Shown: positions 31,117-37,593 of the stretch, piece by piece
Position numbering within the stretch: the stretch's first letter is position 1
Layout: each line of letters begins with the position of its first letter
Assembly: GCA_042570105.1 (NCBI GenBank)
Contig: JBHPHW010000003.1
Span: 1-57,818, forward strand
Length of the DNA stretch: 57,818 nt
Source of the DNA: Candidatus Omnitrophota bacterium
GTDB lineage: Bacteria; Omnitrophota; Gorgyraeia; Gorgyraeales; Gorgyraeaceae
Direction: 5' to 3'
Notes under the pieces: generated by a model
What the model saw: the letters and a program-made list of their open reading frames with translations, nothing else
Databases searched by the model: none
Told to the model about the DNA's origin: nothing
Position numbers and translations under genes: made by a program

Positions 31117-32826
31117 CTATGCGTACTCCTTTGTCTCTTTCAGCACCTCTTCAACGGTAGTCAACCCTTCGATGATCTTAACCATCCCGTCTTCGCGCAA
31201 GGTCTTCATACCTGTATCTCGCGCCCTTTTCCTTATTGCCGAGGAGCTGGCTCGTTTAACCACCAGCTCTCTTACCCCCTCATCCATAACCAATAACTCG
31301 TATATGCCTGTTCGCCCCTTATAGCCTGACCCGCTGCACTCTGAACAGCCCTCGCCTTTATAGAACTTAGAGTCCTTTAATTTGTCTCTGGAGATCCCTA
31401 ATTCTGAAAGTTCTTTTCTTTGCACCTCGTAAGATTTTTTGCATTTCCCGCAGATCATCCTCACAAGCCTCTGTGCGATTACTGCCCTAATAGTAGAACT
31501 TATCAGGAATGGCTCCACCCCCATATCCACAAGCCTTGTAACAGCGCTCGGCGCATCATTAGTATGCAATGTACTAAAAACAAGGTGGCCTGTAAGGGCA
31601 GACTGGATCGCTATCTCTGCTGTCTCAGAGTCCCTTATCTCACCTACCATTAAGACATCAGGATCCTGCCTCAACATATGCCGTAATGTCTTTGCAAAGG
31701 TAAGGTCTATCTTTGGGTTTATTGCTACTTGAATAATACCTTCGATGTCGTACTCAACGGGGTCTTCGGCTGTTATGATCTTATATTCTATTTTGTTTAT
31801 CTCGCGTAAACACGAATAGAGCGTAGTAGTCTTGCCGCTGCCTGTGGGCCCAGTGGTCAATAGGATCCCATTCGGCCTTTGTACGACCTTTCTGAGTTTA
31901 GTTTTGAAGGAATCACTCATGCCAAGCTGATCCAAAGACAGGCTCACCACACTTTTATCAAGGACCCTCATGACAATACTCTCGCCATAAAGAGTCGGGA
32001 GCGTCGAGACTCGAAGATCAACGCCCTTGCCGCCAATATCCATCATGATCCTTCCGTCTTGGGGGAGCCTGTTTTCTGCAACATCCAAATTTGCCATGAC
32101 CTTTATTCTGGAACTAATCGCAAGGCTCAAGTCCTTTGGCGGATGCGCAGCGTCATAACATATGCCATCTATCCTATACCGTATATTATAATCATTTTCA
32201 AATGGCTCAAAGTGTATATCTGAGGCCTTCTCTCTTATTGCCCTTAGAAGCACCATATTTAATAGCTTCACAACAGGCGCCTGCGAAGCGATCTCCTTCA
32301 GCTTATCTACGCCCTCTTTCCCTAAAGCAATAGATTCACCAGACACCTTCTTTGCCTCATCTATCACATCACCAAGAGATTCCTCTTCTTCGCCGTAATA
32401 ACGTTCCTGCGCCTTCTTTATATCATCTCCTTTTGCTACGACCATTTTGATGTCAGATCCTGTCACAAAACGCAATTCATCGGCAAGTTTTATATTCAGA
32501 GGGTCGGAAACAGCTACGATTACAGTGTCTCTATCGATCCTCAACGGCACGACATTATAAAACTTTGCTGTACTTGCTGATATCTTATTGATGGCGTTCC
32601 GTTCTATGCTCACCTTCGAAAGATCCACTACTTCTATACTCAGCCAACTGGCAACAGTATTCAATAAGGCATCCTCTTTTATATATCCGTGATCGACGAG
32701 GATCTTGAAGATATTTTTTCCGGTCTTTTTTCCCTCTTCGAGAGCTTCATCGATGACATGCTGGGTCAACAGCTTCTCATCTACCAGTTTTTTCAACAAC
32801 AAATTGTACTTAGACTCTCTAGACAT
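31117..32826 (-). CDS. type II/IV secretion ATPase GspE/PilB
   Basis: ASDIHFEP, LPQDGR, TGPTGSGKTTTLY, RQDPD, STLHTND, CxxC..CxxC Zn motif. Confidence 0.94.
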   Translation of the reverse strand: MSRESKYNLLLKKLVDEKLLTQHVIDEALEEGKKTGKNIFKILVDHGYIKEDALLNTVASWLSIEVVDLSKVSIERNAINKISASTAKFYNVVPLRIDRDTVIVAVSDPLNIKLADELRFVTGSDIKMVVAKGDDIKKAQERYYGEEEESLGDVIDEAKKVSGESIALGKEGVDKLKEIASQAPVVKLLNMVLLRAIREKASDIHFEPFENDYNIRYRIDGICYDAAHPPKDLSLAISSRIKVMANLDVAENRLPQDGRIMMDIGGKGVDLRVSTLPTLYGESIVMRVLDKSVVSLSLDQLGMSDSFKTKLRKVVQRPNGILLTTGPTGSGKTTTLYSCLREINKIEYKIITAEDPVEYDIEGIIQVAINPKIDLTFAKTLRHMLRQDPDVLMVGEIRDSETAEIAIQSALTGHLVFSTLHTNDAPSAVTRLVDMGVEPFLISSTIRAVIAQRLVRMICGKCKKSYEVQRKELSELGISRDKLKDSKFYKGEGCSECSGSGYKGRTGIYELLVMDEGVRELVVKRASSSAIRKRARDTGMKTLREDGMVKIIEGLTTVEEVLKETKEYA

Positions 32827-34480
32827 CCTGGGTCACCCTTATTGCCTCCTGAATCGTCGTATATCCTCTTTTTACTTTTTCGAGGCCATCCTCTTTTAAT
32901 GTCCTCATACCTTTTTCTTTTGCCTTTTGATATATCTCAGAGCTCGAGACATTATTTAGGATCATTTCCCTTATCTCATCATCCATTGTAAAAAGCTCTA
33001 TTATGCCCATCCTTCCTTTAAATCCGGTGTTACTGCAATTGGAACACCCCTTGCCCCGATAAAGTTCAAGATTCCCTTCCTCATCATCTTTCAAGGAAAG
33101 TGCCTCTTTTTCTTCTTTGGACGGCTTATAACCAACTCTGCATGATGGGCATATTGTCCTAACCAACCTCTGGGCCAAAACACCTTGCACAGTAGAAGCA
33201 ACAAGATAAGGCTTAATACCCATATCAACCAATCTCGTAACAGCACTTGCCGCATCGTTTGTGTGTAAGGTACTGAAGATCAAATGGCCCGTAAGAGCGG
33301 ATTGTATTGCTATCTGCGCAGTCTCCATGTCTCTTATCTCGCCTACCATTATAATGTCTGGCGCCTGTCTAAGCATCGATCTGAGGCCGCCGGCAAATGT
33401 AAGGCCTATCTGCGGCCTCACCTGGACCTGGTTTATGCCATCTAACTGATATTCTACGGGATCCTCTATTGTAATGACCTTGCGCTCTTTCTGATTTACG
33501 TGACTAAGAGCCGCGTATAAGGTTGTGGTTTTCCCGCTTCCTGTGGGACCTGTTACCAATATCATACCATTGGGCAGATTTATCAATCTTTCAAATTCCT
33601 TTTTCTCATCTGGCAAAAACCCCAGGTCCTCGATCCCTACAAGAAAACTTGATTTGTCAAGGATCCTCATGACAACACTTTCTCCATGTATACCTGCCAG
33701 ACTTGACACCCTCAAGTCCAGCTCATTTTTATTAAGGCGTATCTTAATCCTACCGTCCTGAGGAAGGCGTTTTTCCGCTATATCCATCCCTGCCATGATC
33801 TTGATCCTGCTAATAACCGAGCCCTGTAATCTTTTGGGAGGGCCTGGTATATCATGCAGGATACCGTCTATTCTGTAACGTACTCGAAATTTATTCTCCA
33901 ATGGTTCGATGTGGATGTCGCTCGCCCTTCTTTTTACTGCGTCGTTTATTATAATATTTACTAGTTTTATCACAGGCGCATCTTCGCCGCCTTTCGTCTC
34001 TTTTATCTCTTCCGATGCTTTTTCTAAATCAAGACTTGAAGATCCTTTTGAGGCATACAACACATCCAATACACTATCCAAATCCTGACTTCGGACGAGT
34101 TCTACCTCTACAGGAAGGCCGATTATCTTTTCTAGATTCTCACCTGCAAGAAAATTCAATGGGTCATCAGTGCCTACAATGAGTTTACCGGAGGCATGCT
34201 TCAAAGGGATTATTCGGTGAGCTAATACAAGGTGTGCTGGTAAAACGTCCTGATCTTTCTTCTCGATGTCTTGAGGTTTTACAGCGAGGGGCAATATGCC
34301 TATTTGCGAAACGAGCGTTTTGCCTACGCTCTGATTTGATATGTATCCTAATCTGACAAGCACACTCGCAAGGCTCTCTTTGGTCTTGATCTGTTCTAGA
34401 AGGGCCTTATTTATTTTCTCATCATCTAAAAGGCCGATATTCTTTATGGTGGCTTTTACGATATCCTTTTTACTTACCAA
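32819..34480 (-). CDS. type II/IV secretion ATPase GspE/PilB (second paralog)
   Basis: ASDIHIEP, LPQDGR, TGPTGSGKTTTLY, STLHTND, CPSC..CSNC. Confidence 0.94.
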   Translation of the reverse strand: MVSKKDIVKATIKNIGLLDDEKINKALLEQIKTKESLASVLVRLGYISNQSVGKTLVSQIGILPLAVKPQDIEKKDQDVLPAHLVLAHRIIPLKHASGKLIVGTDDPLNFLAGENLEKIIGLPVEVELVRSQDLDSVLDVLYASKGSSSLDLEKASEEIKETKGGEDAPVIKLVNIIINDAVKRRASDIHIEPLENKFRVRYRIDGILHDIPGPPKRLQGSVISRIKIMAGMDIAEKRLPQDGRIKIRLNKNELDLRVSSLAGIHGESVVMRILDKSSFLVGIEDLGFLPDEKKEFERLINLPNGMILVTGPTGSGKTTTLYAALSHVNQKERKVITIEDPVEYQLDGINQVQVRPQIGLTFAGGLRSMLRQAPDIIMVGEIRDMETAQIAIQSALTGHLIFSTLHTNDAASAVTRLVDMGIKPYLVASTVQGVLAQRLVRTICPSCRVGYKPSKEEKEALSLKDDEEGNLELYRGKGCSNCSNTGFKGRMGIIELFTMDDEIREMILNNVSSSEIYQKAKEKGMRTLKEDGLEKVKRGYTTIQEAIRVTQDV

Positions 34481-34529: not shown

Positions 34530-35273
34530 CTACCTATTTATCAAACTCGCGAAATACCCTGCTCCAAAACCATTGTCAATGTTTACAACGCTGACTCCGG
34601 GAGAACAGCAATTCATCATAGTCAATAACGGCGCTATACCTTTAAAGCTGGAACCATAACCCACGCTCGTAGGAACCGCTATAACAGGTTTATCTGTAAT
34701 GCCGGAAACTACACTCGCTAGAGCCCCCTCCATGCCTGCTACTACAATAATGACATTTGCCCTTGAAATATCAGATAGCCTATCAAATAATCGATGTATG
34801 CCTGCTACTCCAACATCATAAATCGTCTTTACCTTGTTCCCCATGATCTCCAGAGTCAGTCTTGATTCTTCAGCAACAGGTATATCGCTGGTACCTGCGG
34901 TAAGGATCAAGACTATTTTTTTGTTTTTTAATCTAGCTTTTTTTGTATAGATGATCCTGGAGAGGGCATCGTATTTCAGCTTCGGGTGAGTTTTCTTCAG
35001 ATATGTGAATAATTTCTCGTTGGCCCGGGTAAAAAGAATACGTTCATCTCTCTTTAAAATATCATCGAGTATCTTTTTTATATGCAAAGGATTTTTACCC
35101 TCACAATAAACTACCTCCCCAAATCCTTTACGAAGCGATCTATGATGGTCTAATCGCGCAAAATTTAAATCTTTATAGGGAAGGTTTTTTAGTAACCCAT
35201 ATGCTTTTTTAGCCCCGATCCTTTTCGAGCCCACATCCTTCAATAACTTCTTTATTGATTCTTTGGAATCCAT
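34530..35273 (-). CDS. larB: nickel pincer cofactor biosynthesis protein LarB (AIR carboxylase-like)
   Basis: ARLDHHRSLRKG, AGTSDIPVAEE, DVGVAGIHRL, AGMEGAL, PTSVGYG, VNIDNGFGA. Confidence 0.92.
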   Translation of the reverse strand: MDSKESIKKLLKDVGSKRIGAKKAYGLLKNLPYKDLNFARLDHHRSLRKGFGEVVYCEGKNPLHIKKILDDILKRDERILFTRANEKLFTYLKKTHPKLKYDALSRIIYTKKARLKNKKIVLILTAGTSDIPVAEESRLTLEIMGNKVKTIYDVGVAGIHRLFDRLSDISRANVIIVVAGMEGALASVVSGITDKPVIAVPTSVGYGSSFKGIAPLLTMMNCCSPGVSVVNIDNGFGAGYFASLINR

Positions 35274-35274
35274 T

Positions 35275-35568
35275 TTATTTGAAGATGAAAAAAAGAATTA
35301 CAATAACCGCGATAAACGAAAAGATATAAAAATCATTAAAATAAAAAAAATCTTTCACCCTGTCAAGAAAGGTATTGGGATATCTTTGCCTGGATCTACT
35401 AGGGGTCTTGTGGCGGTAGAGATTTAAATCATCGACTTTAAATCTTGTGTAAACTCCTCCTATCTTGTATGAGGAGATCTTGCCTTTACCTACTATTCTT
35501 TGCAGCTCTTCCTCTTCTATCCGAAGGTAATCTGCTGCCTCTTTTGAAGTCAAAAATTTCTTCATCAT
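35275..35568 (-). CDS. excisionase/HTH_17 (MerR-like) DNA-binding protein with C-terminal TM anchor
   Basis: FLTSKEAADYLRI...GKISSYKIGG..RF; ends FYIFSFIAVIVILFFIFK. Confidence 0.8.
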   Translation of the reverse strand: MMKKFLTSKEAADYLRIEEEELQRIVGKGKISSYKIGGVYTRFKVDDLNLYRHKTPSRSRQRYPNTFLDRVKDFFYFNDFYIFSFIAVIVILFFIFK

Positions 35569-35616
35569 AAGCGAAATGCCTTGCGCAATCTAAAGGTTAG
35601 ATCTACCTTTTTGTGA

Positions 35617-36138
35617 TTATTTCGCTCCCCTCTCTTTTGCTATCCACTCATCAACCATCACCCTGTCAAAGCGCCATTCGCTTCCTTCTTTACGAGCTGG
35701 TATCTTCCCTGAGTTTGCCCAGTCCATTATATTTGAGACATCTACTTCTAAATATTTTGCCAATTCATTTACATTAAATATGCTTCCTCCCTTGCCGGGA
35801 TAGTTAAGCATCTGACACTTTCCCTGTATGACAGCGCCCGAATCTACGCCCAAAACAGGCGTTACGATGTCTCCTACGATGTGGGCGGATGAGGTGATCT
35901 TCAGTTGTCTCTGGGCAGTGATATTACCGGTAACCTTTCCGCTTACTGTTATTTCCTCACCAGTTATATCTGCGCGGACTGTTGCGTTTTCTCCTATGGT
36001 AAGACTACCTTTTGTGTCCAGTCTGCCTTCAAAACTTCCATTTATCCTCAGGTTTACAGGATCCTTAAATGCGAGAGTCCCCTGCATACTGGCATCAACA
36101 TCCAGAACCTTTGCTTCAGCCTTGTCCCTTCTAGCCAT
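35617..36138 (-). CDS. bactofilin (polymer-forming cytoskeletal domain) fused to a C-terminal HTH_17/excisionase-like domain
   Basis: Beta-helix repeats LRINGSFEGRL..LTIGENATVRADI..VSGKVTGNI..IVGDI..GAVIQGKC, then FNVNELAKYLEV...SGKIPARKEGSEWRFDR. Confidence 0.85.
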   Translation of the reverse strand: MARRDKAEAKVLDVDASMQGTLAFKDPVNLRINGSFEGRLDTKGSLTIGENATVRADITGEEITVSGKVTGNITAQRQLKITSSAHIVGDIVTPVLGVDSGAVIQGKCQMLNYPGKGGSIFNVNELAKYLEVDVSNIMDWANSGKIPARKEGSEWRFDRVMVDEWIAKERGAK

Positions 36139-36598
36139 TTTCTCCTCCTTTCTGTTTCTTTTCTCCTTCTCCTACATGAATATGAATCTTCCGCAATAGA
36201 TAAAGCGAAGCCAACACAATAACAGTTGTTACAAAACCTGCTATGTAGAAGCCGCAGCCAACAGCCAGCCCTATGCCCGAAACAGTCCATAGACTTGCAG
36301 CTGTTGTAAGGCCTGTAATAGATTTCTCGGAACGAATAATCGTTCCCGCCCCTAAAAAACCGATACCTGTTATTACACCTGCTGCTATCCTTGCAGGATC
36401 TACAGGGGTATCTTTTCCATAGAGAAGGAACACGTAAATAGAAGTGAGCATGATAAGCGTAGACCCCACACAAACAAGTATATGAGTCCTGAAACCGGCG
36501 ATTCGCCTATTATGCCTCTCCCTTTCAAAACCTATAAGCCCTCCTAATACCGCGCCTGTCAGTAATCTCAAAACTATCTGTAGATCAGTAAGCATCAC
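36131..36598 (-). CDS. MgtC/SapB family membrane protein (membrane domain only)
   Basis: LIGFERE, AGFRTHILV, DPARIAAGVITGIGFLGAG, GLTTAASLW. Confidence 0.93.
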   Translation of the reverse strand: MMLTDLQIVLRLLTGAVLGGLIGFERERHNRRIAGFRTHILVCVGSTLIMLTSIYVFLLYGKDTPVDPARIAAGVITGIGFLGAGTIIRSEKSITGLTTAASLWTVSGIGLAVGCGFYIAGFVTTVIVLASLYLLRKIHIHVGEGEKKQKGGENG

Positions 36599-37593
36599 TT
36601 TTCTCCCTTGTTATTCGCAGTTATCTCCAAACTAGACCTGACCCCTTTCTTATACAACTTATAAGCCAGGCCTGCGATCATAGCTGCGTTATCCGAACAC
36701 AATTCAAGTGGCGGAAAGTATAAACTAAAACCTCTAAACATCGATTCTCTTGTGATCATTTCCCTGAATCTGGAATTTGCGCTTACCCCTCCTCCGACAA
36801 CAAGCGTCCTTACATTATGCTTTTCCATGGCCTTTAAACAACTTTCTACGATAAGTTTCAGCACCGCCTCCTGGAAACTCGCAGCAATATCTCCTCGTTC
36901 GCCACTCGTGATCCGTGATCTCTGGGCTTTTACATGATACAAAACAGCTGTCTTAATACCACTAAAACTAAAATTGAGGGATCCATTGACATTTCTGCAG
37001 GTAAACTTAACGGCCCGGGGATCGCCTTTCTTTGCAAGCCTATCTATTATAGGCCCTCCCGGATAGCCCATACCTAAGATCTTTGCTACCTTATCATAGG
37101 CCTCGCCAACTGCATCATCCAGCGTATCCCCCAATATCACAAATGTGTCAGGATCTTCTACAAGAGAGAGTCGCGTATGGCCTCCTGATATAACAAGTCC
37201 TATAAAAGGGTAGCGAGGCGCGCCTTTCAGCATCAAGCTAGAATAGATATGCGCCTTAAGATGATCCACAGCTATCAGAGGAATATCCAGGGCATATGCC
37301 ATTGCCTTTGCGCAAGCTATGCCCGGAAGCAATGCGCCCACTAGACCCGGCCCTTGAGTCACAGCTATAGCATCTAAATCTATCATAGAAACTTTAGCGT
37401 TATATAAGGCGCTTTCTATGACTTTGTCTATATTTTCTACGTGATGCCTTGTCGCAATCTCAGGAATTACCCCGCCAAATCTCTTATGATATCTCAGACT
37501 TGAAGAAATCGCATTGGATAATATCTCTTTTCCGTTTTTTACGACACTTGCGGCTGTCTCGTCGCATGAAGTTTCGATGCCTAATATTAACAT
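36595..37593 (-). CDS. tsaD: tRNA threonylcarbamoyladenosine biosynthesis protein TsaD
   Basis: GIETSCDET, GPGLVGAL, HLKAH, SGGHT, DDAVGEAYDK, SFSGIKT, DNAAMIA. Confidence 0.97.
   Translation of the reverse strand: MLILGIETSCDETAASVVKNGKEILSNAISSSLRYHKRFGGVIPEIATRHHVENIDKVIESALYNAKVSMIDLDAIAVTQGPGLVGALLPGIACAKAMAYALDIPLIAVDHLKAHIYSSLMLKGAPRYPFIGLVISGGHTRLSLVEDPDTFVILGDTLDDAVGEAYDKVAKILGMGYPGGPIIDRLAKKGDPRAVKFTCRNVNGSLNFSFSGIKTAVLYHVKAQRSRITSGERGDIAASFQEAVLKLIVESCLKAMEKHNVRTLVVGGGVSANSRFREMITRESMFRGFSLYFPPLELCSDNAAMIAGLAYKLYKKGVRSSLEITANNKGEK

Follow-up and report, generated by a model that had tools for sequence, protein, structure and literature searches.

A 57,818-nucleotide (nt) stretch of Candidatus Omnitrophota bacterium DNA (GenBank assembly GCA_042570105.1, contig JBHPHW010000003.1, positions 1 to 57,818; hereafter the window) encodes on its reverse strand two adjacent genes, here called A and B. 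Together they make up a cytoskeletal module of two genes, which we saw only in the phylum Omnitrophota. The product of A joins a bactofilin to a winged helix of the helix-turn-helix (HTH) family HTH_17, and the product of B is a small, probably tail-anchored membrane protein with a winged helix of the same family. The reading that we favour, at a probability of roughly 40%, is that B anchors a polymer of A at the membrane and has in addition a role of its own, possibly a loose contact with DNA.

A bactofilin–winged helix fusion and its membrane-bound neighbour

Both domains of A score above their gathering cut-offs, with Bactofilin at residues 11–109 (86.3 bits, cut-off 27.9; a genome-wide scan with the Bactofilin profile puts the match at 35812-36108) and HTH_17 (PF12728) at residues 121–169 (48.2 bits, cut-off 27). 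B matches HTH_17 at residues 5–51 (34.3 bits, cut-off 27). Both proteins also pass the NCBIfam 'excise' domain model TIGR01764 (34.6 bits for A and 31.6 for B, cut-off 28.8), and their HTH domains align with each other at 97% probability in a profile–profile alignment. A first description by a model, made from the nucleotide sequence (the original prediction), had read A as a bactofilin beta-helix with a C-terminal HTH_17 domain and B as the same domain followed by an aromatic patch and one C-terminal transmembrane helix. The Pfam scores and the structural models bear out both architectures.

The AlphaFold2 (AF2) model of A has a mean predicted local distance difference test (pLDDT) score of 87.5, with block means of 92–98 over the beta-helix (residues 11–110) and a winged helix at residues 120–171 (helices 123–130, 134–143 and 159–171; strands 149–151 and 154–158). 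Its predicted template modelling score of 0.62 is as expected for two freely linked domains, and the linker between them spans 5–18 residues among homologs. Because the query has two domains, the Foldseek E-values were all above 0.001, and template modelling (TM) scores and sequence profiles were used instead. The beta-helix superposes on BacA (2n3d; TM-target 0.83, root-mean-square deviation 2.2) and on TtBac (6rib; TM-target 0.78), while the C-terminal domain resembles BldC (6ama, TM-target 0.73), a small-terminase domain (0.71), Pukovnik Xis (0.70), RdfS (0.66) and RacA (0.62). In profile searches against the PDB, A matched bactofilins at 7e-11 and 3e-9, and its best match outside the bactofilins was RacA (E 0.099). 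By sequence and by fold, A belongs to both the bactofilins and the HTH_17 proteins.

Residue patterns were read from alignment A1, which holds the A homologs of 52 of the 58 genomes described below (46–74% identity to the window protein; the near-duplicates L021, L026, L028, L032, L034 and L042 were left out). Position 104 of A aligns with F105 of TtBac, which we take to be the end-to-end polymerisation interface, with F105R reportedly blocking polymerisation (the PDB title gives the mutant name only). Of the 52 homologs, 23 have Leu here, 15 Ile, 12 Phe and 2 Val. With a hydrophobic residue there and a beta-helix that superposes on BacA, A appears to keep the features of a polymerising bactofilin and, by homology, should polymerise via its beta-helix.

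An N-terminal membrane-targeting peptide is typical of the bactofilin family, though not universal. Its published consensus is M-F-S-K-K-K-K, in which F2 and K4/K7 are critical, according to the passages on targeting of the study concerned (PMC12448750). This consensus is not found in A: Phe2 occurs in 1 of the 52 homologs, and the N-terminal tails mostly read M-A-K/R-K/R and continue with acidic residues.

The AF2 model of B (mean pLDDT 80.6) contains a winged helix at residues 5–54 (helices 8–15, 19–27 and 45–54; strands 34–36 and 40–44), a low-confidence linker and a C-terminal end in which a helix at 67–77 is followed by a break at residue 78 and a second helix at 79–96 (pLDDT 93–95). This end, as modelled, looks like a tail anchor preceded by an interfacial helix. 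In alignment A2 (52 rows of B homologs, 22–66% identity), the best 19-residue Kyte-Doolittle window falls within the last 30 residues in 52/52 homologs (mean 2.37), and only 0–7 residues lie beyond the membrane helix. The aromatic motif R-x-x-D-F-x-Y-F-N-D-F-Y-I is strongly conserved. The linker has a mean charge of +2.8 (range -5 to +7), and the aligned stretch 52–70 covers 13–54 residues in the homologs. The B profile matched Pukovnik Xis (4j2n, 8e-6) and BldC (2e-4) in the PDB, as well as RdfS, Tn916 Xis and RacA. We propose from this layout that B exposes its winged helix to the cytoplasm from the inner membrane. The features of both genes are listed in Table 1.

Table 1 Features of genes A and B, in window positions.
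Feature	Position	Strand	Basis
Gene A, bactofilin–HTH_17 fusion, 173 amino acids (aa)	35617..36138	-	Open reading frame (ORF), Pfam, AF2
A residues 11–110, bactofilin right-handed beta-helix	35809..36108	-	Pfam PF04519 1.7e-24, AF2, Foldseek
A residues 111–120, flexible linker	35779..35808	-	pLDDT <50 at 113–117
A residues 121–169, acidic winged helix (HTH_17)	35632..35778	-	Pfam, AF2, Foldseek
Spacer from A stop to B start, 48 nt	35569..35616	-	
Gene B, tail-anchored HTH_17 membrane protein, 97 aa	35275..35568	-	ORF, Pfam, AF2
B residues 5–51, Xis/BldC-type winged helix with basic wing	35416..35556	-	Pfam, PDB profile matches
B residues 52–66, variable linker, mostly basic	35371..35415	-	Alignment; pLDDT 56–65
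B residues 67–77, conserved aromatic juxtamembrane helix (R-x-x-D-F-x-Y-F-N)	35338..35370	-	Alignment consensus, AF2
B residues 79–96, C-terminal transmembrane helix	35281..35334	-	Hydropathy, AF2 pLDDT 93–95

Conservation and loss of the pair

In all loci of two sets (30/30 and 40/40, the latter taken across families; 12 genomes are common to both), the gene that immediately follows A on the same strand is a homolog of B. This makes 58/58 distinct genomes with the window's included, a count that is conditional on A, as the 57 comparison genomes were picked for having it. The original prediction had made its case depend on syntenic conservation of the pair, and this is what was found. The gap between the two genes ranges from -28 to +196 nt among relatives. 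In the window's class, the gene order is gatB, ctpA, tsaD, (mgtC), A, B, with larB frequently next. In other classes, A is preceded by genes for DnaK or FliM, by mnmA, by a transglutaminase-like gene or, once, by tsaD, and B is usually followed by (greA), acpS, ydjC and surE. The A–B junction is the only one kept in all 58 genomes, and the other neighbours change between classes.

The pattern of presence and absence was examined in a sample of 201 Omnitrophota genomes. A was matched in 194 of them at E ≤ 0.001 and at full length (E ≤ 1.4e-30) in 173, and full-length B (profile search, E ≤ 1.7e-20) was found in 184. Cross-tabulation gave 173 genomes with both genes, 11 with B only, 17 with neither and 0 with A only, so that the genomes carrying A are nested within those carrying B. 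The B-only genomes include G015, G033 and G163 of genus g8 (96–99% complete) and G047, G063, G087, G093 and G109 of family f9 (95–100% complete), and the Bactofilin model matched none of the five B-only genomes scanned. The order is tsaD-mgtC-B-larB in G033 and tsaD-B in G087 and G047, where A appears to have been cleanly removed from its usual place. Since tsaD-A-B is still intact in G035, likewise of f9, A alone must have been lost independently at least twice. Six of the 17 genomes with neither gene are at least 90% complete; therefore, the whole module can also be lost. The asymmetry of these losses suggests that A needs B and not the reverse. Because it persists in lineages that have lost A, B is evidently not merely the partner of A.

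A homolog search with A returned 2279 proteins at E ≤ 0.001. Among the 120 matches listed, all carry both Pfam domains, with lengths of 159–175 aa and 66–100% identity to A, and the taxon names given are all Candidatus Omnitrophota or Omnitrophica. Such homologs go by 'polymer-forming cytoskeletal protein' or 'excisionase family DNA binding protein' in public records. When 1.84 billion cluster representatives were searched, about 25 full-length A-type clusters came up, down to 31% identity, and 4 divergent ones were confirmed as Bactofilin plus HTH_17. For the most divergent full-length fusions, the only names were 'PVC group bacterium' or CcmA, and the 31%-identical group maps to an Omnitrophica WOR_2 metagenome-assembled genome (MAG). 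The matches of the B profile and the Atlas neighbours belong to Omnitrophota, except for one MAG labelled Patescibacteria. The bactofilin–HTH_17 fusion was thus seen only in Omnitrophota, as far as the matches can be assigned, most of them carrying no taxon name. The window's genome, a 1.26-Mb assembly that is 76% complete, has A as its sole Bactofilin match and three HTH_17 matches: besides A and B, a 61-aa protein encoded on a different contig. A was the only bactofilin in 5/5 A-carrying genomes scanned.

Several unusual architectures came up in these searches. The WOR_2 fusion (L077:3001-3564) is 187 aa long, and the representative of its cluster is the one 31% identical to A. Among the distant matches, P0202, P0229 and P0189 are made up entirely of HTH_17 domains, two or three in tandem. 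P0169 (311 aa, on a 1085-nt contig) combines a glycosyltransferase-1 segment, a partial bactofilin and HTH_17, and may reflect a genuine fusion or else faulty gene calling on so short a contig. No fused A–B form was found by a B-profile search among proteins of 234–2000 residues, a search that is weak as evidence.

Proposed membrane anchoring and the alternatives

The residues of the two winged helices were mapped onto solved relatives by HMMER alignments to RacA and BldC, together with the profile–profile alignment of A to B. The winged helix of A is acidic to neutral in 52/52 homologs (net charge -6 to 0, isoelectric point 4.3–6.5). In BldC, Arg30 makes base contacts, the R30A substitution abolishes binding, and RacA uses the equivalent Arg, according to the passages on DNA recognition of the BldC study (PMC5859096). 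At this position, 35 of the 52 A homologs have Glu, 12 have Asp and 3 have Lys, and the residue is hence acidic in 47/52. The position of BldC Arg22 is Glu in 49/52, and that of Arg50 is acidic in 32/52. The recognition helix of A has a charge of -4 to 0, compared with +2 in BldC, and the wing ranges from -2 to +4, with a basic residue at the Arg48 position in 34/52. The hydrophobic 'head' is kept: the Trp31 position is Trp in 49/52, and the Phe21 position is Leu throughout. The third HTH_17 protein of the window's genome, which serves as an internal control, has Thr, Arg and Lys at the positions of BldC Thr27, Arg30 and Lys33. Judged by these alignments, the winged helix of A does not look like a DNA reader. 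A departs from typical bactofilins in having no targeting peptide, and from DNA-binding HTH_17 proteins at the base-reading residue.

B has kept a basic wing, with a charge of +2 to +6 (compared with +4 in BldC). Its Arg42, at the BldC Arg48 position, is invariant (52/52), Lys or Arg stands at the Arg41 position in 49/52 and at the Arg50 position in 52/52, and Gly is found at the Gly44 position in 49/52. Its recognition helix is variable, with a charge of -3 to +3 and with Arg (13), Lys (11), Glu (9) or Asp (8 of 52) at the Arg30 position. A conserved wing and a variable recognition helix would fit a loose contact with DNA or the nucleoid, or another partner.

We favour a model in which A would polymerise via its beta-helix, each subunit displaying a winged helix on a flexible linker, and in which B would be the membrane receptor that holds this polymer at the membrane. 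The contact would be made between the acidic HTH domain of A and the cytoplasmic part of B, plausibly acidic-to-basic between the two winged helices and perhaps via the head-to-tail surface known from BldC. Anchoring by B would replace the N-terminal targeting peptide missing from A. As B survives without A, it must presumably also act alone, perhaps through a loose, wing-mediated contact with DNA or the nucleoid or through some other partner.

A close parallel is the BacA/BacB–PbpC system of Caulobacter crescentus, in which a membrane-associated bactofilin polymer binds a single-pass protein via the cytoplasmic part of the latter. When overproduced, the bitopic membrane client PbpC can stand in for the targeting peptide of BacA, as reported in the passages on PbpC (PMC12448750), and such anchoring is therefore feasible. 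The likeness is partial. Unlike A, BacA carries a targeting peptide at its N-terminus and lacks an HTH domain. PbpC is a periplasmic cell-wall synthase, whereas B has hardly any residues on the far side of the membrane and a winged helix on the cytoplasmic side. In the RodZ–MreB system, a membrane-anchored protein has a cytoplasmic HTH domain that binds a cytoskeletal filament and not DNA. B resembles RodZ in being a membrane-anchored protein with a cytoplasmic HTH domain and differs from it in the type of domain (HTH_17 as opposed to XRE) and in having, in place of the periplasmic RodZ_C, the few residues that follow its membrane helix. That B might be a RodZ substitute was set aside, as canonical RodZ_C is encoded elsewhere in 4/5 genomes. 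Literature searches, with supplementary tables outside their reach, found no description of a bactofilin–HTH fusion or of the A–B pair among the titles and abstracts listed. The papers listed on Omnitrophota and the cytoskeleton deal with magnetosome actins and other subjects. The passages on bactofilin variants in one study mention N-terminal transmembrane forms and no HTH fusion (PMC12448750).

Several points weigh against membrane anchoring by B. The A–B contact itself is something that we infer from the sequences, and a complex prediction with full-length A and residues 1–72 of B, both entered as alignments, gave ipSAE values of 0.06 and 0.07 (mark 0.32; controls not run), which speak neither for nor against binding. 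The case against DNA binding by A, built on charge and residues, is indirect; the aligned part of the RacA winged helix is not basic either, although this protein binds DNA (PMC5859096). B is well conserved in lineages without any bactofilin, because of which anchoring A cannot be its only job, and it may not be its job at all. The adjacency of the genes was counted where A is present, and the loss asymmetry rests on few events: two losses of A alone are verified, and G131, G124 and G175 are candidates only, B sitting at the start of its contig in G175. About 5 of the 52 A homologs begin with M-A-F-K-K-K and may still bind the membrane directly. Finally, the WOR_2 fusion has no adjoining B-like gene and is followed instead by a gene for a 262-aa multi-pass membrane protein. 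The N-terminus of this fusion starts with hydrophobic and basic residues resembling the targeting consensus, and the coincidence of a targeting-like N-terminus with a missing B, found in this one lineage only, is a hint in favour of the anchor.

The original prediction saw in the pair a candidate chromosome tether, in which both winged helices would assemble head-to-tail on DNA and link the nucleoid, the bactofilin polymer and, via B, the membrane, for anchoring or segregation. We consider this unlikely. Both domains do pass the HTH_17 threshold and align with each other, their nearest solved relatives (BldC, Xis, RdfS and RacA) all bind DNA, and BldC multimerises head-to-tail on direct repeats, as described in the passages on its assembly (PMC5859096). 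The basic wing of B, the hydrophobic head of A and the existence of proteins made of two or three tandem HTH_17 units also agree with such assemblies. However, A is acidic where BldC needs Arg30 and RacA its equivalent, its recognition helix lacks the positive charge of that of BldC, and the recognition-helix positions are among the least conserved in both A and B, which would be unexpected if the DNA target were conserved. With ParB present in 4/5 genomes scanned, a canonical segregation system already exists, and no par genes were noticed adjoining the pair in the loci inspected. The part of the tether that concerns B is thus compatible with its basic wing, while co-assembly of both HTH domains on DNA is doubtful because A lacks the DNA-reading residues of BldC and RacA.

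Known systems of this kind differ from the A–B pair in how the link is made. In Myxococcus xanthus, the BacNOP scaffold is tied to chromosome organisation (PMC5703909). There, the link runs via the adaptor PadC and ParA/ParB and not via an HTH domain fused to the bactofilin. The free small DNA-binding proteins BldC, Xis and RdfS share fold and family with the domains of A and B, and the wing residues with B, but none of them is attached to a polymer or a membrane helix. RacA and DivIVA of Bacillus subtilis likewise tie a MerR-like winged helix to a membrane-bound scaffold, in this case a coiled-coil protein. The similarity of A to RacA is weak, and RacA reads DNA by the Arg equivalent to BldC Arg30 (PMC5859096), where A has Asp or Glu.

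Another reading would make B, or the HTH domain of A, a transcription factor, with sequestration at the membrane or on the bactofilin polymer controlling its access to DNA. There is a precedent in B. subtilis, where the gene for BacR (YhbD, DUF4004) shares an operon with those for the bactofilins BacE and BacF. The two bactofilins bind BacR near its HTH domain and hold it at the membrane, DNA and bactofilin binding being mutually exclusive, so that BacR loses DNA binding (PMC13649987, passages on sequestration). A DNA-binding-type wing in B and the persistence of B without A would fit a regulator having its own target. Against this, B is permanently membrane-anchored and has neither a sensor domain nor more than a few residues past its helix, with no release mechanism apparent, and its recognition helix varies between lineages. 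Neither A nor B gave a Pfam match to DUF4004 at E ≤ 0.1, and BacR is soluble and unfused, whereas the present pair has one HTH domain joined to a bactofilin and the other to a membrane helix. No conserved regulated gene adjoins the pair across classes. A switch of this type strikes us as rather improbable.

Nor do we give much credence to the view that A and B act independently, adjacent only through an old housekeeping operon that they share, with the HTH domain of A binding some other partner. It would account for the lineages that keep B without A, for the divergent fusion that lacks an adjacent B and for the housekeeping genes around the pair. It leaves out of account that the A–B junction alone is kept while the rest of the neighbourhood changes, that none of the 201 genomes has A without B, and that the two proteins share a domain that is otherwise rare (three matches in the window's genome).

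That A and B are excisionase genes left by a mobile element is extremely improbable: there are excisionase-family matches (TIGR01764, PHROG excisionase families and, below threshold, the MADS1 equivalog NF047737, which scores 43.4 and 22.1 bits where 80 are required), but all such matches cover the HTH domain only, the pair is inherited throughout the phylum at a locus fixed beside tsaD in the window's class, and no integrase was found among the flanking genes scanned (the window and 19/20 loci of other classes), in agreement with the original prediction. An origin in defence systems or phages was also discarded, as PADLOC and PHROGs gave HTH-level matches only (mad1, excisionase and small-terminase families).

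Returning to B as the membrane anchor of A, the unusual traits of the module are a winged-helix adaptor on the polymer subunit, a tail-anchored neighbour with the same domain and the missing targeting peptide. For bactofilins, widespread scaffolds though they are, few clients and few modes of anchoring are known. Should B be the anchor, the pair would represent a new and genetically simple way to attach a bactofilin to the membrane, and one more DNA-binding fold re-used for protein contact. Both proteins are small enough for tests in E. coli, without culturing the source organism.

Cell organisation in Omnitrophota and the surroundings of the pair

The A–B module is a near-universal signature of Omnitrophota, which are uncultured and have small genomes (about 0.7–3.7 Mb in our sample). 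The Pfam Tubulin/FtsZ model matched 0/5 and then 0/121 Omnitrophota genomes (116 of them of high quality), while 13/14 control genomes were matched, and the NCBIfam ftsZ model matched 0/5 genomes, two closed ones included. MreB was found in 5/5 of the genomes scanned. In the closed genome G143, the division and cell wall (dcw) cluster (L075, G143:C1:952000-968000) consists of murG, murC, murB, an IS200-like gene, ddl, ftsQ and ftsA; no ftsZ follows ftsA, and a HAMP-GAF-HD gene on the opposite strand ends the cluster. The IS200-like gene, which encodes a Y1 transposase, lies between murB and ddl at L075:10794-11453. A paper from 2025 groups Omnitrophota with phyla that conserve dcw genes, to go by its passage on that grouping (PMC12283558). 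The absence of FtsZ from our sample may disagree with this, and the literature on FtsZ in the phylum is not settled.

If the absence of FtsZ is real, a sole bactofilin and its membrane partner are natural candidates for a part in division or nucleoid placement. The module is an obvious candidate for questions of how these cells organise themselves and divide, because it is near-universal in a phylum in whose sampled genomes no FtsZ was found. A more ambitious scheme would make A–B a core cell-organisation scaffold, in which B would tether the nucleoid (or the FtsA/MreB machinery) to the membrane by way of its winged helix and the HTH-decorated polymer would gather B in a defined zone, marking or driving FtsZ-independent division or chromosome partitioning; we rate it as quite improbable.

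In the window, the end of mgtC overlaps the start of A by 8 nt, and the stop of B abuts the start of the larB-like (AIRC) gene. A look-up of sequencing runs for window 34900-36700 listed none, and no RNA holder either. A Pfam scan of the neighbours matched tsaD, mgtC, the LarB-like AIRC protein and a PilB/T2SSE ATPase, the same core-gene neighbourhood that the original prediction had named. Its suggestion that the pair might serve polar localisation of the adjacent pilus machinery did not hold: pilB adjoins the pair in only 4/40 wider loci, namely 3/4 of the window's own family and L069, a locus from another family of the same class, and a link to the adjoining pilus ATPase was dropped as a candidate.

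Two long ORFs of 569 and 553 aa, overlapping by 8 nt, lie just downstream of the larB-like gene (window 31117-32826 and 32819-34480, both on the reverse strand), and the latter encodes the PilB/T2SSE ATPase, with an MshEN domain. This ORF pair recurs in 3/4 wider loci of the window's own family, and L069 has pilB and an ORF of the 569-aa type without the larB-like gene. In G033, the MgtC-like gene upstream of B (L079:2331-3002) encodes 223 aa as opposed to 155 aa, with an extra C-terminal segment.

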